Source: an uncultured Spirochaetota bacterium (GTDB lineage: Bacteria; Spirochaetota; Brevinematia; Brevinematales; JAOACQ01). Taken from it: a stretch of DNA of 64,000 nt. The stretch is taken from assembly GCA_963783575.1 (NCBI GenBank), contig CAWAOD010000005.1, positions 576,001 through 640,000 on the forward strand. The letters are read 5' to 3'. Both the position numbers and the translations under genes were made by a program. This document shows positions 40,304 to 51,406 of the stretch, piece by piece; the stretch's first letter is position 1; each line of letters starts with the position of its first letter. The notes beneath the pieces were generated by a model. The model was given only the letters and a program-made list of their open reading frames with translations, was not told the origin of the DNA and made no database searches.

Positions 40304-41191
40304 TTAATTTGTAGATACAACTACAGAATAATTTGAAATAACTGTAATTCCGGCGCCGATAGCGACTTCAGTACCAAGCTCAACAGTACATACATAATCA
40401 GAGGGATTCAGTACTCCCTTATTAGTAAGATACGACAGAAAAGGCGTGATATCGAAAGCTGCCGCGTTAAAAATCTGAGTACCGGACCCCGCGCTGAATG
40501 CGGCGTAAATCCAATAGTGGGGCGATCCCCCCTGGTTTGTAGCATAATAATAATTAAAGTTGTAACCGTTGGCGCTCAGTGAACCGGTAGGACTAATCCC
40601 GTCGGGGATAGCGTTAGCACTTGCGAGCCATATCATGACTTCACATTTGATATCCGTAGATGTGAATGCCGCCGGGTTGCTGTTATTGGATATTATCCAG
40701 ATGTCGTATGCAAGGTCGTAAGTGTTTCCTCCGAAAGCCTGTGAAGTTGTCTGGCTGATATTAAATGAGGAAGTCAACTGATGGCCGGCAATTATGAAGG
40801 GAAAGTCCATCGGGTGGTTTGTTAAGGGTGCCCAGGGACTATCTCCGCAGAAAACTTCAGGATATGCGAGTACTGTATACTGATTGTTATTATTCCAGGA
40901 CCACTGCCAGCCGAAGAAACCGGTTCCGTTGGTGCTGCCGTAAAAGATGGTTTCACTGAATGGCGTCTTGGCGTACTGAACATTCCATTCGTTATTATTT
41001 ACCTGATATCGGCTGTTAATGATTATTTGATCGTTATTATTGGTTTTGAAAGCGGTAACTCCGGCTGGCAGGCCTCCGGAAGTCGAATTGGTTCCTCCAC
41101 CTCCTGAACCTGGTTGAACCGTGGAACAGGCGTATAAAATAAAAAAGGATATTATTATAATATACAATAAAAGAGGGTGTATTCTTTTCAT
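40304..41191 (-). CDS. GH12-like endoglucanase lipoprotein
   Basis: Lipobox LYAC; YPEV, DLAYDIW, CEVMIW (nucleophile), ELGTEV (acid/base). Confidence 0.82.
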   Translation of the reverse strand: MKRIHPLLLYIIIISFFILYACSTVQPGSGGGGTNSTSGGLPAGVTAFKTNNNDQIIINSRYQVNNNEWNVQYAKTPFSETIFYGSTNGTGFFGWQWSWNNNNQYTVLAYPEVFCGDSPWAPLTNHPMDFPFIIAGHQLTSSFNISQTTSQAFGGNTYDLAYDIWIISNNSNPAAFTSTDIKCEVMIWLASANAIPDGISPTGSLSANGYNFNYYYATNQGGSPHYWIYAAFSAGSGTQIFNAAAFDITPFLSYLTNKGVLNPSDYVCTVELGTEVAIGAGITVISNYSVVVSTN

Positions 41192-41321: not shown

Positions 41322-41351
41322 TTGACTTTATGACGGGTATGGTTATATAAT
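41322..41351 (+). promoter_or_regulatory. Putative sigma70 promoter of the amr operon
   Basis: TTGACT-N18-TATAAT. Confidence 0.55.
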
Positions 41352-41394: not shown

Positions 41395-42930
41395 ATGAAA
41401 AATAAAATCAACAGATTCTGGTTTTTATCAGCATTAATTATTTATGCCCTGTTCAGCTGCAGTTTAAAGGGGGATTACAGGCATGCTGCCAATGCCGGAT
41501 CTTTTTATCCCTCCGATAAGATAGAGCTGAGGAAGATGCTGGATTATTTCTTCAGCCATGTGACTGTTAATACAGATGTGAAACCTGACGCAATTATCGT
41601 ACCGCATGCGGGCTATGAATACAGCGGCGGAACGGCCGCGTATGCTTATAATACGCTTAAAGGGAAGAATATTAAAAGGGTCATACTGCTGGCGACATCG
41701 CATTATGCCTATGTGAACGGGATTGTAATCAATGAGAAGGCTTATGAGACCCCTCTCGGGGTTTATAATATGGACAGACAGGCAATTGATATATTAAAAA
41801 GGGAGGATTTCGATCATGTTAAAAATGAGATTGAATCCACCCGTGAGCACAGTGATGAAGTCCAGATCCCTTTTCTGCAGGAGGTTCTGCCGGATGCTAA
41901 ACTTGTACCTCTTATCGTTGGAGAATTATTTGAAGATGAATATACAAATGCCGCAAAGGCATTGAATAAAATTATTGATGATAAAACAGTAATCGTGGTG
42001 AGCTCTGATTTTACCCATTACGGTGAACGATTTGAATATACGCCGGACTTCGGCGGGAAAAGTATAAAAGACGGTGTGACTGAACTGGATGGAAAAGCCA
42101 TCGGGTTAATAACTAACCGCGATTACAGGGGATTTGTGGAATATATTAAAAAAGTCAGCGCAACTATCTGCGGCGCTCATCCGATAGCCCTGCTTTTGCG
42201 GATTCTGGAGGAAAGAAATTATCCCTTCAAAGGCAATCTGCTGAAATATACTATGAGCGGTGAATTGACAGGGGATTATTCAAATAATGTGAGCTATTCC
42301 GCCATCCTTTTCGGGGATGTCAGGTCTATTCAGGATATAAAGTCCGATAAGCCGTCGATAGACCGGAAGCTGATCGGCGATGATGACGAAAAAACCCTGT
42401 TAAAGCTTTCAAGGAACGTGCTGGAAACTTTTGTGAAAAAAAACAGCTCGGATTTTCCGCCGGATAAACTGAAGGATTATAATATTACTGAAAATCTGAG
42501 TCAGAAACTGGGCGTATTCGTTACCCTGACAAAGAAGGGTGATTTGAGAGGCTGTATAGGATACATTACGGGGCGGGATGAGCTTTATAGGGCTGTAATT
42601 GCCAATACCATAAATGCGGCCGCGAATGACCCCCGTTTTCCGCCTGTCGCTGGCGATGAATTGAAAAATATCAGTATAGAAATATCCGTTATGACACCGA
42701 TGGTAAGGATCAATTCACCGGAAGAAATAAGGATCGGAAGGGATGGGCTTTATCTGGAAAATAACGGAAATGCGGGGGTCTTTCTGCCGCAGGTCCCTCT
42801 GGAACAGAACTGGGACAGAAAAACATATCTTGAGGAACTCGGGATGAAAGCAGGTCTTACTGCAGATGCCTATAAGGATAGAAATACGGTTCTTTACCGT
42901 TTTTCTGCACAGGTCTTCGGTGAAAAATGA
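41395..42930 (+). CDS. amrB-amrA: AmmeMemoRadiSam protein B (Memo) - protein A (AMMECR1) fusion with lipoprotein signal
   Basis: Memo motifs AGSFYP, PHAGYEYSG, EHSDEVQIPFLQ, SSDFTHYG, TICG; AMMECR1 motifs GVFVTL, LRGCIG, DPRF, FLPQVP; N-terminal ...IIYALFSC. Confidence 0.92.
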   Translation: MKNKINRFWFLSALIIYALFSCSLKGDYRHAANAGSFYPSDKIELRKMLDYFFSHVTVNTDVKPDAIIVPHAGYEYSGGTAAYAYNTLKGKNIKRVILLATSHYAYVNGIVINEKAYETPLGVYNMDRQAIDILKREDFDHVKNEIESTREHSDEVQIPFLQEVLPDAKLVPLIVGELFEDEYTNAAKALNKIIDDKTVIVVSSDFTHYGERFEYTPDFGGKSIKDGVTELDGKAIGLITNRDYRGFVEYIKKVSATICGAHPIALLLRILEERNYPFKGNLLKYTMSGELTGDYSNNVSYSAILFGDVRSIQDIKSDKPSIDRKLIGDDDEKTLLKLSRNVLETFVKKNSSDFPPDKLKDYNITENLSQKLGVFVTLTKKGDLRGCIGYITGRDELYRAVIANTINAAANDPRFPPVAGDELKNISIEISVMTPMVRINSPEEIRIGRDGLYLENNGNAGVFLPQVPLEQNWDRKTYLEELGMKAGLTADAYKDRNTVLYRFSAQVFGEK

Positions 42931-43997
42931 ACTTCTTCAGGAAAAACGGTTCTTCTATCATTTTACTGATTTGCTTAACGGCTTTGTCGTTCACGCTTTA
43001 TCTGTACATGTGGCAGTTATTGGTTCCATCGATTCTATGGTCGATGTTTATCGGCTTTATCCACAACAGGATTCTCTCGACAGGAAAGGTTTATTCCTAC
43101 CGCTCAATATATTTTATAATACTGGCGGTTTCCTTTATTGCAGGTTTCCGCCTGACTTCCGTTGAGGTTACTCAGACACCTTACTGCCATATAGGTATAG
43201 CGGGAAACTTAATTCATACTTTATATAACCAGATTCTGGCTATTACAAATTCATCCTGGGGCAGGTTCGGAGCTTTAAGCGCAGGCCTGCTCTGGCTGGC
43301 TGTTATTTTAATTAACGGCGGCGGTTTCTGCAGTTATGCCTGCTTTTTCGGGGGAATAGACGAGGGTTTTTCCGGAATCCTGAAAAAGCCGCTGATAAGG
43401 CTTCCGCAAACAAAAAGGTTCCGTGAGTTTCAGATCGCATCCCTTTTATTTTTCGCTTTTATCTCATTTACATCAGTTGAGGCTGTTTTCTGTACCTGGC
43501 TTTGTCCATTGAAAGTTACAAACCATATCCTGAACCCGGAAGCCCCGGCCTGGCTGATTCAAAACATCCTTTATATTTCAACCGGCGCGGTATTTCTTGT
43601 TGGCCTCCCTCTGCTGACAAAAAAAAGGACCTTCTGCAGTATCATATGCCCGTTCGGGGCACTGCCGCCTTTATTGTACCGGATAAATCCCTATAAAATG
43701 AGCGTCGATGATACAAAATGCACGGGATGCAAAAAGTGCCTTGCGGCATGTCCGTCGTTTGCGATAGAAGAAGCCGGTGATAAGGTAAAGATAAACCGGT
43801 ACTGTACTCTCTGCGGAAAATGTTTGGAAACCTGCTCCGGCGGGGCTATTAAGACTACGCTGTTCCATAAAAGGGAATCTTTTTTAATGGCCACGGTATC
43901 TCTGGCTATCGGCGGCGGAATATCGCTGTTTATTTTTCCGGCAGCGGTCATGAATCTTGTGGAATGGACTATAAAGCTGGCAGGATGGAAATTTTAA
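42927..43997 (+). CDS. Membrane polyferredoxin (NapH/RdxA-like 4Fe-4S binding protein)
   Basis: Many TM segments; FCSYAC, FCTWLCP, FCSIICPFG; CTGCKKCLAACP and CTLCGKCLETC. Confidence 0.85.
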   Translation: MNFFRKNGSSIILLICLTALSFTLYLYMWQLLVPSILWSMFIGFIHNRILSTGKVYSYRSIYFIILAVSFIAGFRLTSVEVTQTPYCHIGIAGNLIHTLYNQILAITNSSWGRFGALSAGLLWLAVILINGGGFCSYACFFGGIDEGFSGILKKPLIRLPQTKRFREFQIASLLFFAFISFTSVEAVFCTWLCPLKVTNHILNPEAPAWLIQNILYISTGAVFLVGLPLLTKKRTFCSIICPFGALPPLLYRINPYKMSVDDTKCTGCKKCLAACPSFAIEEAGDKVKINRYCTLCGKCLETCSGGAIKTTLFHKRESFLMATVSLAIGGGISLFIFPAAVMNLVEWTIKLAGWKF

Positions 43998-44021
43998 AAA
44001 TAGTAATAGGTGTAAGAACTT

Positions 44022-44630
44022 ATGATAAAAGAAACCTGGCAGATTGTCATTGAGGGTTTTGTGCTCGGGCTTTCCACGGGCGGGTATTGTTTTATGACAT
44101 GCGTTCCGTTTTTCATGCCTTATATCCTGGCGGCAAGGCGGGCATCGGCATTTTTAAGCTTTATCGCCGGCAGGTTTCTGGCTTATGTAGCCTTCGCAAT
44201 TATAGCAGGCTTCATTGGGGTTTACCTTACAGGGGTTTATAAAAATATATCCGCTGTCCTTTTGATAATCACATCCCTTATTCTTATGTTTTTTTCTATA
44301 TTCAACCTGTTTCCGAAAAATCCGTTCTGCAGGCGTTGGATTGAAAGCGGTCGTCTGAACAGCTATCCATTTATTGCCGGCGTTCTGCTGGGCTTGAACC
44401 TCTGCCCGCCGTTTCTTACCGGAATGGCCAGGGTTATTCAGATGGGAAGCGTATGGAAAAGCGTTTTTTTCTTCATCAGCTTTTTCATGGCCACAACACT
44501 GTTCCTGGTTCCGATGGTTATTCCGGTTCCTTTTTTGAAAGGGGGTTTTTTTAAGAGGCTGGGTTCCTATCTCGGAATACTGGCCGGAATATGGTTTTTA
44601 ATTCAGGGAATAATTTCCTGCTTCACGTAG
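44022..44630 (+). CDS. DsbD_2/TauE-like membrane protein with intramembrane cysteines
   Basis: About 6 TM segments; GLSTGGYCFMTC, GRFLAY, GLNLCPP. Confidence 0.75.
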   Translation: MIKETWQIVIEGFVLGLSTGGYCFMTCVPFFMPYILAARRASAFLSFIAGRFLAYVAFAIIAGFIGVYLTGVYKNISAVLLIITSLILMFFSIFNLFPKNPFCRRWIESGRLNSYPFIAGVLLGLNLCPPFLTGMARVIQMGSVWKSVFFFISFFMATTLFLVPMVIPVPFLKGGFFKRLGSYLGILAGIWFLIQGIISCFT

Positions 44631-44640
44631 GAGTTTTTCA

Positions 44641-46798
44641 ATGATGCTTTTTGTCCTGGGGTTTGTTTCTGTGATCACACAGTCTGTATTATTGAAGGAA
44701 CTGGCTGTTCTTTTCCGGAATAATGAGATTGTGATAGGAATTCTTTTTTTCTGGTGGATGGCCGGGTCTGGTATAGGCAGCGTACTTTATAAAAATCTGC
44801 CGGATAAATTTAAACGTTCCGGATATCCGGCGCTTGTCATTGCGGTAATACTGCAGATCATAATGATTTTTGCGGTCCGTATTACCTCCGGATTTTATTA
44901 TATCAGGGCGGAATTGGATTTGATTGTTTTGTTTTTGTTATCCGCGGTGTTTCTGCTGCCCGTATCTTTATTAATCGGCCTTGCGTTTCCTGCGCTGACC
45001 GGCAGTTCTTCAACGGGCAGAACAACAATCTCATATTTTCTGGAGACATCCGGCTTTTTCGTTGGAGGCATTATATTTTCCCTCCTGATTACCGGTAATT
45101 TTGACGCTCTTCCGGCTTCCGGTATGGTTTTGCTGGTTTGTATTATATCTGTATTTCTGTCCCTGAATCGGAAAATTCAGAGAAGAGAAGCCGTTCTTTT
45201 ATCGGTGATGTTTTTTCTGTGTTTTATTTTTATAGTTTTTAATAGAAATTTTATTGACTTTTCCAGGCAGATGGAATGGAGGGGCGGACTGTTAATAGAA
45301 AGCCGGGAATCGAAATATGGAAATATGGCCCTGCTGGATGACCGGGGGAAAACCCTTTATTATAACGGCAAAGTCCTTGCTTCTGAAGCGTACAATCTGA
45401 CCGAGGAGAAAGCTCATATACCCGCAATGATTAAAGGAAGGCTGGAAAATATTCTTATCATCGGGTATGCCGAGCCCGGTCTTATTACAGAATTGGTTAA
45501 ATATAAACCTCAATCAATTGTAAATGTATTCCTGGATGAAAGACTGGCTGATTTTTCCCAAAAATATTACGGAGAAGAAAATCTTTTAAAAAATATATCC
45601 ATGGACCCCATTATCTGGGTCAAATCGCATCAGGAGAAGTTTGAACTCATCATTCTCAATTTGCCTTTCCCGGATACACTTGCCGGCAGCCGTTTTTATT
45701 CTCTTTCTTTTTTAAAACAATTGAAAAATTGTCTTTCCCTGGCCGGTTTACTTGCCATGTCATTTTCCTATGAGGAGAATTACCTGCCGGAAGAAACCCT
45801 GAACAATTTCAGCCTGCTGTATAATAAATTAAAAAACGTTTTTCTTGAAACCGAAATGCTGCCAATGGAACACTTTTTTCTTCTGGCCTCCGATGCTAAA
45901 ATGACAGCATCAGAGAATTTCCTTGAGAAATCTGTTTCCAGGAGTTTCAGGGAGATTCAATCTCAAAAAGTTAAACCCGTCTTATATCAGTTATTATTTG
46001 AATGAAAAAAGGACCGCCGGCATAACCGGATTGATTACAAACCGCCCATCTCAGAATGAGTCCGGGAATAATTTTGATTTCCGTTTTTATCGGAATACCA
46101 TGAAAAAATGGCTCAAAATAAGTTTTCAAGACAGGTGGATTATCATTTTTGTCATCCTTCTTGCTGCCGGTTATTCGGTATACCGGGGCAGGAGATATTT
46201 GGCAGGTTTTTTCCTGTCCGGAAAATTGGGAATAATCATATTTTTCACTGCCTTTTGCGGAATTGCCGGGGAGCTTCTTCTCATTTATCTCTATCAATAT
46301 CTATATGGTTATATTTATTCTGTTTTCGCACTGCTGATAGCTGCATTTATGCTGGGAATGAGCCTGGGCGCCGGATGGATGGCCGGGAAAAAAAAGGTCA
46401 ATACGGGGGATAATGTGCCGATTATTTTATTTATAACCTGGCTTATTTTAACCGGCGCCTATTTTCTTTTAAATCAAAATATTACAGAATTTGTACCGGG
46501 AATGCCAATATTTTTTCTTCTTTTTACAGACGGTTTTCTCAATGGGTGGATTTTTAATCATTATGCCGGCATGGAGGAAATAAAAGCGGACGCCGCTGTG
46601 ACAGCCGCCAGGACATACTCATACGACCTTTATGGTTCGGCGGCCGGGTCTATTCTCAGCGCTTCGGTATTGTTCCCGTATTTAGGGTTTACCGGCAGTA
46701 TTACAGTTATGGCGATAATTTTGCTTTTATTGCTTTTTTTATTAATAATATATGAAAAGGAGCATGAATGGAAAAAAATTCAAAAAACTTATCATTAA
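44641..46798 (+). CDS. Membrane protein fused to a spermidine-synthase-like domain, split by a +1 frameshift near 45935-45954
   Basis: LKELAVLFRNNEIVIG TM repeat, ESKYGN, EEKAH, LIIG, NLPFPDT...RFYS; second TM repeat YLYQYLYGYIY...AFMLG...YSYDLYGS in the next frame. Confidence 0.78.
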
Positions 46799-47934
46799 TG
46801 GAAATATTTTCATTTACCATATCGTTCCTGGTTTTAACCCTCTTTTTGGCTTTATTTTTCTTCCAGAAGACTCCTTTGATATTTTCTTCCGTTACCGCTA
46901 ATAATTTATATGCCAGGGAGGCCATGTACTGGGAAAGGGCGGATTCGGGAGTGAAATGCAATCTATGTCCGTCATACTGCTATCTGACAGAAGGGGCCAA
47001 AGGTAAGTGCAAAGTCCGGATGAATAAGGACAGCACGCTTTATACTGAAGTTTATGGACAACCGGCCGCTGTCCATATCGATCCGATAGAAAAAAAACCG
47101 GTTTACCATATGCTCCCGGGGAGCATGATCTTTTCCATTGCGACGGTCGGGTGCCCCTTGAAATGCTCATTCTGCCAGAACTGGACTCTTTCGCAGGCCT
47201 ATCCGGAGGAACTGAAAGAGGGTAATAATGGAACCGGCATGATTATCAGTCCGGAGCAGATCGTTCAGTCGGCCATACAGAACGGCAATAAATCCATAGC
47301 CTTTACTTATAGCGAACCGGTAATTTACTATGAGTACATGCTGGATATCGCAAAGCTCGCTAAACAATATGGCCTCCGGAATGTAATGGTCACGTCCGGG
47401 TATTTCAATCCGGAGCCTATCAGTAACATTGCGCCGTATTTTGATGTCATCAAGGTTGACCTTAAAGGGTTCAGTGAAAAATTCTATACTGAAGAGGTCG
47501 GCGGCCATCTGACCAATGTCCTGAAGGTCTTGAAAATTATTAAGGAAATGAATAAGCTGGTTGAAATAGTGAATCTTGTAATACCGCAAAGGAACGACAG
47601 CGATGATGATTTTAAAAGTCTCTGCCTGTGGGTTATGGACAGCCTGGGGCCTGATACTCCGCTTTTCTTCACCCGCTTTATGCCTGATTACAAGCTGAAC
47701 AACCTTCCGCCGACACCGCTGGAAACGCTTCTTCGGGCTAAATCCATTGCTGATAAAACGGGCCTGCACTTTGTATATATCGGCAATGCGCCGGAGGCGA
47801 AGGGGGAAAACACCTATTGCCCGGATTGTCATACTCTTTTAATAGAAAGGGAAGGGTACTGGATAAAAAAGAATATTATTAAACATGGGTGCTGTCCGGT
47901 CTGCGGAAGATCAATTCCGGGGATCTGGGAGTAG
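46768..47934 (+). CDS. amrS: AmmeMemoRadiSam radical SAM enzyme with N-terminal hydrophobic segment
   Basis: CNLCPSYC...CKVR, DPIEKKP, GCPLKCSFCQNW (CxxxCxxC), FTYSEP, VDLKGF, TYCPDC...CPVCG; AAGGAG RBS. Confidence 0.93.
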   Translation: MEKNSKNLSLMEIFSFTISFLVLTLFLALFFFQKTPLIFSSVTANNLYAREAMYWERADSGVKCNLCPSYCYLTEGAKGKCKVRMNKDSTLYTEVYGQPAAVHIDPIEKKPVYHMLPGSMIFSIATVGCPLKCSFCQNWTLSQAYPEELKEGNNGTGMIISPEQIVQSAIQNGNKSIAFTYSEPVIYYEYMLDIAKLAKQYGLRNVMVTSGYFNPEPISNIAPYFDVIKVDLKGFSEKFYTEEVGGHLTNVLKVLKIIKEMNKLVEIVNLVIPQRNDSDDDFKSLCLWVMDSLGPDTPLFFTRFMPDYKLNNLPPTPLETLLRAKSIADKTGLHFVYIGNAPEAKGENTYCPDCHTLLIEREGYWIKKNIIKHGCCPVCGRSIPGIWE

Positions 47935-47941
47935 AAGGATA

Positions 47942-49159
47942 TTATTTTATCTCATTCAGCCAGTTTTTCCATACCGGATCATTTCTTAGATTTATTAAAT
48001 CAGGATCTTTTTCCATATAATTAAAGTTTTTATAACCGTTTTTTACCGCTGATTTTAATGTACCGTATGCTTCCTTAATCTTTCCTGTTTTGCTGTAGGA
48101 ACAGGCTATATTGTAATATGCCAGGTCTTTCTTTTCAAAACCGTTATCAATGGCTTTTTGGTATGCAATAATTGAATCTCCGATTCTATTCTTTAAATTT
48201 GATAAACTATTTCCATAATCATAATAGATTTCCGCCATGTATATCATCATTTCAGATCTTTCTCCCGTCCCTAACTTTATAGCTTCTTCATACTTTTTAA
48301 CAGCCTCATCATCATTTTTTAATTGATGAAAATACAATGCCTGAGAATAAAAATTGTCATATGCGGCATAATCATTTTTTACAGCATCATTATAATTTAC
48401 TAAATTTAAATCATAATCTGCTTTTAATTGTAAGATTGTGGTATTTACAATCCCATGTTGAATATTAAAATAATCGACTCCTTTAGAATTGTTTTTCTGA
48501 AATATATTTTTACTTTTGTCTTCGCTTATAAATTGTTTCCCTTTACCATTTATTATCCATTTTATATCCCTGGCTGAATTTTCTAAATAAACAGGCAGGG
48601 TAAAATAAGAATTATCTCCCATATCAACACTAATATCTATTACGTCGATCTGATTATTTGACCATCTTTTACCTGTACTTAGACGGTATGGGTAAATTTT
48701 ATTGATTAATTTACTCCATCCTTTAAGTTTATAAGTATGAACAATATTATTTAATCCTTTTTTGAAATCCGCTGTAAAAGTATAAACTACAGGGTTATTG
48801 TCTTTGCCGATTTCCATTTTATATTTAACAACTTCATCATTGACGGTGACATTGAAATCTTCAATGCCGGAAGTATTTCTTATTGTCCCGTTTTCATTCA
48901 TTATTTTTTCCGGCGGCGTCTCAAATCCAATTAATCCTTCCTGTTCTTCTTTGCTGTTGCTTAGTTCCAGATATGCCTTAACTAAAACACCGTTATTTGT
49001 ATCGGATTTAAATTCCAGTTTTTCATAAGTTAGGGCAATATTGTAATTCTGTAAAGGAAATAAATTGTCTCCGCTGGCATAAAAAAAACTATCATCAGAA
49101 TATAAATAAGGACTTAAATAAAATAAAAAACAAAGCAAGAATAATTTTAATTTGAACAT
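47942..49159 (-). CDS. Secreted protein with DUF4424-like N-terminus and C-terminal TPR repeats
   Basis: Signal peptide; IALTYEKL, IGF, YRLSTGKRW; TPR AYYNIACSYS...AVKNGY...DPDL. Confidence 0.7.
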   Translation of the reverse strand: MFKLKLFLLCFLFYLSPYLYSDDSFFYASGDNLFPLQNYNIALTYEKLEFKSDTNNGVLVKAYLELSNSKEEQEGLIGFETPPEKIMNENGTIRNTSGIEDFNVTVNDEVVKYKMEIGKDNNPVVYTFTADFKKGLNNIVHTYKLKGWSKLINKIYPYRLSTGKRWSNNQIDVIDISVDMGDNSYFTLPVYLENSARDIKWIINGKGKQFISEDKSKNIFQKNNSKGVDYFNIQHGIVNTTILQLKADYDLNLVNYNDAVKNDYAAYDNFYSQALYFHQLKNDDEAVKKYEEAIKLGTGERSEMMIYMAEIYYDYGNSLSNLKNRIGDSIIAYQKAIDNGFEKKDLAYYNIACSYSKTGKIKEAYGTLKSAVKNGYKNFNYMEKDPDLINLRNDPVWKNWLNEIK

Positions 49160-49431: not shown

Positions 49432-51406
49432 ATGAACCCGCTGATTGTAGCGCCGCTTATAATGGCTTTTATCTGCTTGTATGCCGGAATTTATCATTTC
49501 AGCATGTTTATTCGCCAAAGAGATGATAAACTTAGCCTGGCTTTTTCTTTATTATGTTTTTCAGTCGCTCTTTACGATTTTTGTTCATTCGGTCTGTATT
49601 CTTCAAAAAGTATTAATTTTGGTGTTTTGTATCAGAATTTACAACTAACGGTAGTCAACCTTATATCTGTATCCATGCCTCTGGTTTATATATTATCTAA
49701 CCAATATGCGCCGAAAAAGGGTGATATTGGTTTTATCATTTATATTCGCGGCTTTTTTTATCTATAGTGTTACTTTATTCTTTAATGTGAACGCTTTAAT
49801 GCAAAATACTAATATTAAGTTTTTGGAATTATTTCGGATAACCTATTATGAAACGGCTCCGAATGCGATAACAAGTCTGGAATTAATATTTATTCTATTC
49901 TGTTTTATTTTCATTATTTACTTATTGATACGGAATTATAAAGAAAATAAAAATAATCACATCCGATGGATCTTTATATCTTTAATCCTGTATTTTGTTT
50001 CATTTATTAACGATTCGTTGGTTTATATCGGATTCTACAAGTTTTTTTACACTACTGAATACTCTTTTATGCTGATGATTCTGGCCATGGCGGATTATCT
50101 GCTGCATAAATATGTCGATTTGAAAGAAAAAATATCCATTCAATTGTACACCGACATGTTGACTTCTATGCCAAACCGCCGGAAACTATTATCTGAAATG
50201 GAGAATACTGAACATCCTTTTCTTGTTCTGATTAATATCGATTCTTTCAAGGAAATTAATGATTTTTATGGTAATGATATTGGGGATTTTGTATTGATGG
50301 AATTATCAAAACGACTAAAAAATCTTTCTTTTCAGAATCGGCACCAGATTTTTAAAATGCACGGGGATGAATATGCCATATTAATGGATATGGAAATTAT
50401 TCCGGAAGAAACCGCGAAAAAAACATGGTTCGGCATAATCCATTATATATTTGAGGAAATCAACGATCATAATTTTAAATACCAGGATATTGAAATCAAT
50501 ATACGTGTGACTATTGGAGTCTCCTACTATAATCCAGATATAAATGAAAATGGAGATATCGGATTGTTAAAAAGCAAAGTTTTAAATAATGCAGATATGG
50601 CGTTAAAACACGCAAAAAAATTGGGGAAATCCTTTCTGGTTTATGATAATTCTATGCAAATACATAAGGAATTTGAAAACAATCTTTTTTGGACAAAAAA
50701 AATAAAAGAAGCGATTAATAATGACCGTATAAAACCATTCTTTCAACCTATAATCAATAATTCTACCGGTAAAATTGAGAAATATGAATGTCTGGTCAGA
50801 ATGCTGGATGGAGATGGAAAACTGATCGGACCATATCAGTTCCTTGGTATATCGCAAAAAGTCAGGCTTTATAATAAAATAACCGCGACCATGCTGAGGA
50901 AATCCTTTAATACCTTTGCCGGTACAGATTATGAATTTTCGATTAACCTCTCTGTCAATGATATCCTTAATGAAGAAACCAACCGTTTGATTCATACCAT
51001 TCTAAAGCAAAATGAACTTCTTGCCCCGCATGTGGTTTTTGAAATTCTGGAGTCGGAAGGCATCAGCAATTATGATATTATGTCCGGTTTTATCCATGAG
51101 ATCAGGGAATATAGATGCAAATTTGCCATTGATGATTTTGGTTCCGGATATTCCAATTTTGACCACATCATAAAACTGAATGTGGATTATATTAAGATTG
51201 ATGCCTCTATTATCAAAAATCTCGATCAAGATTCCAATTTAGTTATCATAGCCAGGATGATTGCAGAAGCAGCAAGGGCTCTTGGTATTTCCACCATCGC
51301 TGAATTTGTTCATTCCGAAGCGGTTTTTTTGAAGTGTAAAGAGATCGGCTTCGATTATTCGCAGGGATATTATTTCAGCGAACCAAAAGAAAACATAGAT
51401 AGATAA
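49432..51406 (+). CDS. Membrane-anchored GGDEF-EAL protein split by a +1 frameshift at about 49678
   Basis: About 7 TM segments; DMLTSMPNRR, HGDEY (degenerate GGDEF), YECLVR, AIDDFGSGYSN, IKID, QGYYF; deleting one C in ATGCCTCTGG restores SMLWFIYYLTNMRR. Confidence 0.85.

Follow-up and report, generated by a model that had tools for sequence, protein, structure and literature searches.

The window analysed here, a 64,000-nucleotide stretch from an uncultured Spirochaetota bacterium of the Brevinematales (assembly GCA_963783575.1, contig CAWAOD010000005.1, positions 576,001 to 640,000), carries an operon of the AmmeMemoRadiSam type in which a Memo-AMMECR1 fusion protein (AmrB-AmrA, hereafter AmrB-A) and the radical S-adenosylmethionine (SAM) enzyme AmrS both bear predicted export signals. 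They are encoded together with three membrane proteins: a NapH-like ferredoxin, a DsbD_2 protein and a protein, termed here the carrier, that joins a transporter fold of the major facilitator superfamily (MFS) to a spermidine-synthase-like SAM-fold domain. We read the operon as a radical SAM machine that would work at the outer face of the membrane. A first-pass annotation had described five tightly coupled genes behind one promoter; the gene junctions, the promoter-like site and the family names were all found again, whilst the count of five intact genes did not hold, since the fourth gene occupies two open reading frames (ORFs) and the operon therefore comprises six. Its features, in window coordinates, are as follows.

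41322..41351, plus strand: candidate sigma-70-like promoter, TTGACT-18-TATAAT, proposed from its consensus match only (11/12) and the top-scoring site of the scanned region
41395..42930, plus strand: AmrB-AmrA (Memo-AMMECR1) fusion, 511 amino acids (aa), predicted lipoprotein; TIGR04336 and TIGR04335 above cut-offs
41395..41460, plus strand: predicted lipoprotein signal peptide ending at Cys22, from the sequence, the ortholog Cys and a pattern control
42927..43997, plus strand: NapH-like membrane ferredoxin, 356 aa, seven predicted transmembrane helices (TM); PF12801 and Fer4
44022..44630, plus strand: DsbD_2 (CcdA-like) membrane protein, 202 aa, six predicted TM; PF13386 above cut-off
44641..46005, plus strand: MFS-fold/spermidine-synthase-like protein, N-terminal part, 454 aa, with seven TM and most of the SAM-fold domain; out of frame after ~45936
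45937..45955, plus strand: interval of a +1 frameshift relative to the intact ortholog, from alignment with the 731-aa ortholog
45923..46798, plus strand: MFS-fold protein, C-terminal part, 291 aa, with the end of the SAM-fold domain and seven TM; 54% identity to ortholog residues 456-714
46768..47934, plus strand: AmrS radical SAM enzyme, 388 aa; TIGR04337 above cut-off

The amrB-A and ferredoxin genes overlap by ATGA, gaps of 24 and 10 nucleotides (nt) precede the DsbD_2 and spermidine-synthase-like genes respectively, and the amrS start overlaps the preceding carrier ORF by 31 nt. AmrB-A scored 223 bits against TIGR04336 (cut-off 26) and 166 bits against TIGR04335 (cut-off 99), and AmrS 361 bits against TIGR04337 (cut-off 220) and 67 bits against PF04055. 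The Memo motifs of AmrB-A align with those of human MEMO1, which we take to be metal-site motifs, and the RGC[IV]G and LPQV motifs are close to invariant; the AMMECR1 RGChG and DxRa motifs, as defined in the accessible part of PMC2034487, are also present. In AmrS the CxxxCxxC motif (C129/C133/C136) is invariant in 99/99 sequences and is accompanied by two further Cys groups (C64/67/71/81 and C351/354/376/379), and the closest solved relative is the pyruvate formate-lyase (PFL) activating enzyme (E 2.9e-13). Elusimicrobiota AmrS (e.g. L084:9926-11155) have lost the final Cys of their C-terminal zinc ribbon, Elusimicrobiota and Omnitrophota AmrS have gained a Cys five residues ahead of the first CxxC, and inteins with LAGLIDADG domains are found in the AmrS homologs P0160, P0161, P0163, P0165, P0166 and others.

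Both soluble components carry N-terminal sequences consistent with export, as the first-pass annotation had claimed. AmrB-A has the positively charged n-region, hydrophobic core and lipobox Cys expected of a lipoprotein, and Cys22, at the end of the predicted signal, is conserved in its ortholog, whilst other orthologs have signals without this Cys; a custom lipobox pattern that AmrB-A matches was found in 137/2981 ORFs of at least 200 aa in the genome and in 13/19207 internal-Met controls. B-A fusions adjoining the membrane genes bear signal peptides, and in 4/5 Omnitrophota genomes without an adjacent fusion a signal-bearing one is encoded elsewhere. In AmrS, 63 residues precede the first Cys and include a hydrophobic anchor at about residues 13-31, compared with leaders of mostly 12-29 non-hydrophobic residues in cytoplasmic-type AmrS. 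No twin-arginine motif was found in the window AmrS, which by this test is not a substrate of twin-arginine translocation (Tat). In 31/39 AmrS leaders the stretch before the anchor has a higher net charge than the stretch after it, sister AmrS clades have cleavable Sec-like and Tat leaders, and it is on such relatives that the predicted orientation of the window AmrS is based. A second structural disulfide was considered as a mark of export but not established: the extra Cys, at position 59, occurs in 27/38 leader-bearing and 0/61 other AmrS but is absent from the window AmrS.

Besides this operon, the genome encodes AmrS, AmrB and AmrA without leaders, and has a further copy each of the B-A fusion and of the ferredoxin-DsbD_2 pair. 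The second fusion (G000:C18, L022:7301-8860, minus strand) is 58% identical to the first and has a weak or atypical leader; there is no amrS in its vicinity, and the opposite strand carries a DUF362 gene. The leaderless amrB (G000:C9, L025:5845-6773) is, like the carrier gene, present as two ORFs, of 237 and 76 aa.

Natural fusions, each a single metagenomic protein, agree with a position of AmrS outside the cytoplasm. P0156 and P0157 combine a signal with S-B-A in one chain; P0164 consists of the carrier, an extra helix after a basic KRKK and then AmrS; P0158 and P0167 link FMN_bind, a NapH-like region, a helix and AmrS, P0167 also including DsbD_2; P0170, P0172 and P0173 join the carrier, a NapH-like region, an internal twin-arginine motif and AmrS; and P0159 has a signal, propeller repeats and AmrS, the 110 residues preceding AmrS being without a helix. 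A further set (P0140-P0147) joins the carrier to FMN_bind and a NapH-like region.

The species-genome scan yielded 240 related stretches; the 80 best were retained, and 77 of these were classed after L043, L075 and L104, which are broken or partial, had been set aside. The neighbourhood survey called for in the first-pass annotation came out as that annotation anticipated, signal-bearing AmrS co-occurring specifically with the three membrane genes: for the 37 AmrS with a hydrophobic leader the locus holds the ferredoxin in 22 cases, DsbD_2 in 24, the carrier in 31 and any of them in 33, as against 0/40 loci of AmrS without a leader. Restricting the comparison to loci of at least 9 kb gave 29/31 for leader-bearing and 0/29 for plain AmrS. 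These loci span Spirochaetota, Lentisphaerota, Omnitrophota, Planctomycetota and Elusimicrobiota, with varying gene orders; a close ortholog of the window AmrS or of the full-length carrier was found in only one of 40 related genomes (G011). No recurring substrate gene was found among the neighbours, the flanks being lineage synteny (dxs, polyprenyl synthetase, LOG, lpx genes and pilins).

The two halves of the carrier align end to end with one 731-aa ortholog (53-54% identity), separated by one extra base at 45937-45955, and in orthologs the carrier is a single ORF. An assembly error is a plausible cause of the frameshift because 3/95 orthologous genes are frameshifted in this assembly (2/155 in the reverse test). 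A public read run contained 6% of sampled words and gave three 151-base contigs at 45207-45827, short of the frameshift. Programmed frameshifting was rejected, since the site has no slippery run and orthologs carry the gene as one ORF. Averaged over 48 sequences, the carrier shows 14 hydrophobic helices, and the K/R counts of its short loops alternate (inside 3.8, 1.7, 2.1, 4.5, 3.6, 1.9; outside 0.2, 1.8, 0.5, 0.7, 0.9, 0.1), so that residues 204-498, which contain the SAM-fold domain, are predicted to lie outside. The model of the intact ortholog (predicted local distance difference test, pLDDT, 88.7) has the two pseudo-symmetric six-helix bundles of an MFS fold, and matched both the MFS protein SotB (Z 26.4, root-mean-square deviation (rmsd) 4.0, 340 aligned) and SpeE (Z 25.3, rmsd 3.4, 271 aligned); the two bundles are also detected as an internal repeat (hhalign probability 96). 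The MFS_1 profile gave no match to the carrier ortholog, and the SpeE family scores are below cut-off (TIGR00417 38.7/249.6; NF002956 57.6/472). The Gly-rich loop, presumably the decarboxylated-SAM loop, is degenerate (GYAEPG here), and in the NLPFPD region the position of the Asp that we take to be catalytic in spermidine synthase is Asn or another residue, both being variable over 29 rows; acidic residues are kept at positions we assume to be adenosine-binding. The carrier profile retrieved 10,067 representatives at E <=1e-30, many of which probably lie outside AmrS systems.

A complex prediction, likewise proposed in the first-pass annotation, paired the outer domain of the ortholog with AmrS and scored 0.77, the best of three controls reaching 0.53, with at least 83% contact agreement and partner pLDDT of at least 89 across runs; the score mark used is reached by 116/157 solved complexes and 2/215 mismatched pairs and is only roughly valid with the alignments used. 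In the model the conserved ENY loop and R461 of the carrier touch the invariant HxDP motif of AmrS, and the interface also includes N138, Y179 and R301. The earlier proposal that the SAM-fold membrane protein moves SAM or products thus gains from the transporter fold and the predicted AmrS contact, although the gene is broken in this assembly.

Fifteen Cys of the ferredoxin are invariant in 116 sequences and H88 is present in 93/116. Eight of these Cys lie in the inner 2x[4Fe-4S] domain, four at the inner face (C135/C139/C237/C241) and, by predicted topology, three at an outer-face site (C87/C189/C193, plus H88), an arrangement that would have the anatomy of a trans-membrane wire. The model (pLDDT 92.4) gave no evidence of a new fold, Foldseek matching only ferredoxin domains and VIA only generic helical bundles (best Z 8.4), and an Atlas search returned only uncharacterised 4Fe-4S clusters. 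Scores against the NapH families are below cut-off (NF007013 48/234; TIGR02163 44/213); the protein probably resembles NapH-type wires in its working, yet is not NapH by these profiles. The DsbD_2 protein (PF13386, 58 bits, cut-off 24.9) matches DsbD_2 and not DsbD_TM, with conserved Cys motifs in TM1 (CxxxC) and TM4 according to an alignment of 23 sequences and the predicted topology; no thioredoxin-like gene was found in the operon, and no solved relative of DsbD_2 by sequence.

These two proteins had been regarded as the system's own accessories, which the wider distribution contradicts. The ferredoxin is present in 14/251 genomes of the phylum, at 15 places, of which two adjoin amr genes; 11 of the 13 others have a membrane-anchored Glucodextran_C protein as neighbour, and at 10 of the 13 DsbD_2 lies within 1.5 kb. 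Because most spirochaete copies adjoin a different protein, the ferredoxin-DsbD_2 pair is modular and not dedicated to the AmrS system. The ferredoxin-Glucodextran_C neighbourhood looks like a separate envelope redox module, and the second DsbD_2-ferredoxin pair of this genome (G000:C14, L023:5594-10890) is flanked by a secreted helical protein on one side and a membrane-anchored Glucodextran_C/TPR protein on the other.

The presence of DsbD_2 was compared with the export route of AmrS in a set of 160 loci, of which 129 were classed; many relatives at 80 further metagenome loci show plain Tat signals. DsbD_2 adjoins 34/58 Sec-type AmrS (loci without a twin-arginine motif, L068 and L151 being probably Tat), 0/32 Tat-type AmrS, which are related proteins with clear Tat signals, and 0/21 split-type AmrS; among loci flanked on each side by 1 kb or more, the figures are 26/31, 0/15 and 0/6. 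Two distinct DsbD_2 groups accompany Sec-type AmrS, the second of them without the ferredoxin. At split loci a short gene downstream of amrS encodes a Tat signal and the missing first AmrS strand (5/5 examined); in L160, L180, L189, L197 and L206 it has ~45 codons and the strand is EAMFW-like, which suggests piggy-back export of the adjacent AmrS. TatC is present in 5/14 Sec-type genomes and was not found in 9/14, one of these being a single-contig chromosome and most of the genomes being incomplete. As DsbD_2 tracks Sec-type and not Tat-type export, thiol reduction or metal loading fits better than a supply of catalytic electrons, the role first assigned to it, and DsbD_2 probably serves the loading of clusters after Sec export.

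We therefore favour, with a probability of roughly 0.6, an outer-face radical SAM machine with AmrS and AmrB-A outside, a carrier, a ferredoxin wire and a DsbD_2 helper. This reading starts from the families, motifs, co-occurrence and fusions described above and from the predicted topology, folds and AmrS contact, and goes on to the transported solute, the direction of electron flow, the role of DsbD_2 and the substrate, for each of which we infer the most fitting candidate. Sec would export both AmrB-A, as a lipoprotein, and AmrS, which an N-in, C-out anchor would hold in the membrane. The MFS-fold carrier, with its 14 helices, would dock its outward SAM-fold domain, whose catalytic motifs are degenerate, onto the active site of AmrS and would most likely supply SAM or clear 5'-deoxyadenosine and methionine, and the NapH-like wire (inner 2x[4Fe-4S], inner Cys4, outer Cys3-His) would bring low-potential electrons. 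Since Sec exports unfolded protein, AmrS would have to gain its clusters outside, DsbD_2 most likely keeping the AmrS Cys reduced or delivering metal. AmrS would then generate a 5'-deoxyadenosyl radical, like PFL activase, and the AmrA cysteine and AmrB metal site would process the product. The complete chain, in which a Sec-exported AmrS is clustered outside via DsbD_2 (as thiol reductant or as iron/cluster shuttle), fed with SAM by the docked carrier and given electrons via the Cys-ligated wire, is put forward tentatively, at less than even odds. None of the results identifies the envelope proteins, lipids or glycans named earlier as substrates. We lean, not far short of an even chance, to an envelope protein or peptide, damaged or awaiting modification, as the target, because of the activase-type fold and the parallel cytoplasmic set, as in two-compartment repair systems; a scavenged nucleoside-like molecule seems a doubtful alternative and a lipid an unlikely one.

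A number of points weigh against this reading. The earlier claim of an extracytoplasmic system is supported by the AmrB-A and AmrS export signals, the outward SAM-fold domain and the fusions that place AmrS outside; on the other side, the anchors of the window AmrS and of its three closest relatives have a neutral charge bias, and the orientation of this AmrS is taken from its relatives. The carrier gene is split in this assembly. One of the complex controls scored 0.53, and because the residues of the modelled interface are not better conserved than the rest (0.46 versus 0.48; 0.72 versus 0.69) the complex counts as support only, favouring carrier-AmrS binding without demonstrating it. On a quick tree the leader-bearing AmrS fall into a single clade (SH-aLRT 93), as does the ferredoxin/DsbD_2 subtype (SH-aLRT 99), and the co-occurrence counts therefore reflect few events, with one origin and later spread. 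The link between Sec export and DsbD_2 amounts to four independent pairs on the tree, none of which points the other way, and does not reach significance (median p 0.5); 5/31 well-flanked Sec-type loci have no DsbD_2 nearby, 11 Sec-type loci with the second DsbD_2 group have no carrier gene in the DNA fetched, and DsbD_2 genes occur elsewhere in the probably Tat-type genome G274. This genome has TatC, and we know of no precedent for Fe-S assembly following Sec export. The route described for exported Fe-S proteins, in the accessible part of PMC5449189, is cytoplasmic cluster insertion followed by Tat.

The neutral anchors, the missing twin-arginine motif and the ferredoxin [4Fe-4S] domain, inside by predicted topology, would also suit a split topology, in which the AmrS catalytic domain is cytoplasmic and takes electrons from the inner clusters, the carrier flips a membrane substrate out to the exported AmrB-A, and Fe-S assembly outside is no longer needed. 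We consider this quite unlikely given that AmrS is predicted to bind the outward SAM-fold domain, that signal-S-B-A single chains and AmrS fusions behind an in-to-out helix exist, and that sister clades have cleavable Sec-like and Tat leaders and most members of the same clade positive N-regions. In the wiring of the first-pass annotation everything is outside, the ferredoxin and DsbD_2 form the catalytic electron path and there is no maturation role. Thiol-disulfide relays carry two electrons at a potential ill-suited to the reduction of a radical SAM cluster, no DsbD_2 gene adjoins any of the AmrS of Tat type (32) or of split Tat-peptide type (21), which depend on electrons as well, and the second DsbD_2 group goes with Sec-type AmrS where the ferredoxin is missing; this wiring is thus distinctly improbable, even though the ferredoxin and DsbD_2 are neighbours both in this clade and at 10/13 non-amr spirochaete loci and P0167 joins DsbD_2, FMN_bind, NapH-like and AmrS regions in one protein.

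It is very improbable that the SAM-fold domain is itself an enzyme (a methyl- or aminopropyl-transferase) or a protein substrate of AmrS, a modified small molecule or lipid being made at the cell surface. The model does contain the full spermidine-synthase fold, the Gly-rich loop is intact in the relatives at L045, L047 and L050, and in the modelled complex the conserved ENY loop makes contact with residues of the AmrS active site, but in this clade the Gly-rich loop is degenerate, Asn or another residue stands in place of the catalytic Asp, and scores are far below the SpeE cut-offs. An operon that is inactive in this organism, with the carrier gene a true pseudogene, is unlikely: the frameshift interval is not in a long homopolymer and the genome's cytoplasmic amrB is also split, yet at the frequencies of frameshifted orthologs found a single indel within 2.2 kb of coding sequence is nothing unusual, none of the other four genes is disrupted and the carrier halves keep their identity to the ortholog. 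Such inactivity leaves the function of the family unaffected.

Around the operon, a divergent lipoprotein of glycoside hydrolase family 12 (40304-41191, minus strand) has its upstream region in common with it, and a convergent secreted TPR protein (TPR_END_plus; 47942-49159, minus strand), in a low-GC stretch, lies 7 bases from the amrS stop. Further on, an EAL/GGDEF-like membrane protein (49432-51406, plus strand; domains by sequence reading) apparently consists of two overlapping ORFs of 111 and 566 aa, possibly through another indel.

Both radical SAM enzymes and the assembly of Fe-S clusters are held to belong to the cytoplasm. If the outer-face reading is true, an outward, Sec-routed AmrS breaks both this rule and that of Tat for exported Fe-S proteins, and on the complete chain set out above the operon would represent an undescribed extracytoplasmic route of Fe-S maturation together with an undescribed bacterial route of SAM export. 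To our knowledge no reaction has been assigned to the Memo/AMMECR1/radical SAM trio, of which Memo and AMMECR1 have human homologs. An exported version would confine the substrate to the envelope or medium, and would name a SAM carrier, an electron wire and a maturation helper for reconstitution. The RNA base modification proposed for AMMECR1 in the accessible part of PMC2034487 suits an exported copy poorly, and Memo/AMMECR1 chemistry would, if the complete chain is right, be shown to do without an RNA substrate.

Several known systems share parts of this design. The PFL activating enzyme, the closest solved relative of AmrS and likewise a CxxxCxxC protein, is itself cytoplasmic and unanchored, whilst this operon has no glycyl radical enzyme and AmrS has two extra Cys groups. 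CcdA keeps exported Cys reduced before cofactor loading in cytochrome c maturation, and the CcdA/DsbD relays share with the DsbD_2 protein six helices, Cys in TM1 and TM4 and the reduction of exported Cys before cofactor loading that is proposed here; the DsbD_2 protein differs in its TM1 CxxxC and in an operon without a thioredoxin-like or cytochrome partner. The carrier model matches both SpeE and MFS transporters, but here a single chain combines the two folds, two extra helices flank the outward SAM-fold domain, and the catalytic motifs of that domain are degenerate. NapH-like proteins with FMN_bind domains have been described, in the accessible part of PMC8238504, as modular extracytosolic electron-transfer units. 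The NapH/PceC/NosR systems have in common with the ferredoxin a PF12801 membrane protein and inner clusters, and in relatives such a protein is fused with FMN_bind; the differences are the lack of FMN_bind here, the invariant outer Cys3(-His) site and the radical SAM partner. The main text of PMC8238504 contains no radical SAM, AMMECR1 or Memo, although its gene-cluster table may still hold amr loci, and in the accessible part of 10.1101/2023.11.02.564894 a radical SAM gene is mentioned only as a neighbour. The HXS antiphage system likewise ties radical SAM enzymes to a periplasmic product, but HxsB and HxsC have no signal peptides and presumably stay in the cytoplasm, export being confined to the substrate (accessible part of PMC13128918). 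No description of an exported AmmeMemoRadiSam system was found in the literature covered, outside which lies the main Memo-context paper (Burroughs et al., 2019, J Biol Chem 294:10211), which may mention one. By the tests made, the operon does not qualify as a spermidine synthase, NapH or Tat system but belongs to AmmeMemoRadiSam (TIGR04335, TIGR04336, TIGR04337), with all three components above cut-offs, their motifs intact and a single operon, and it differs from that system in the export signals on both soluble parts and in its three membrane partners.

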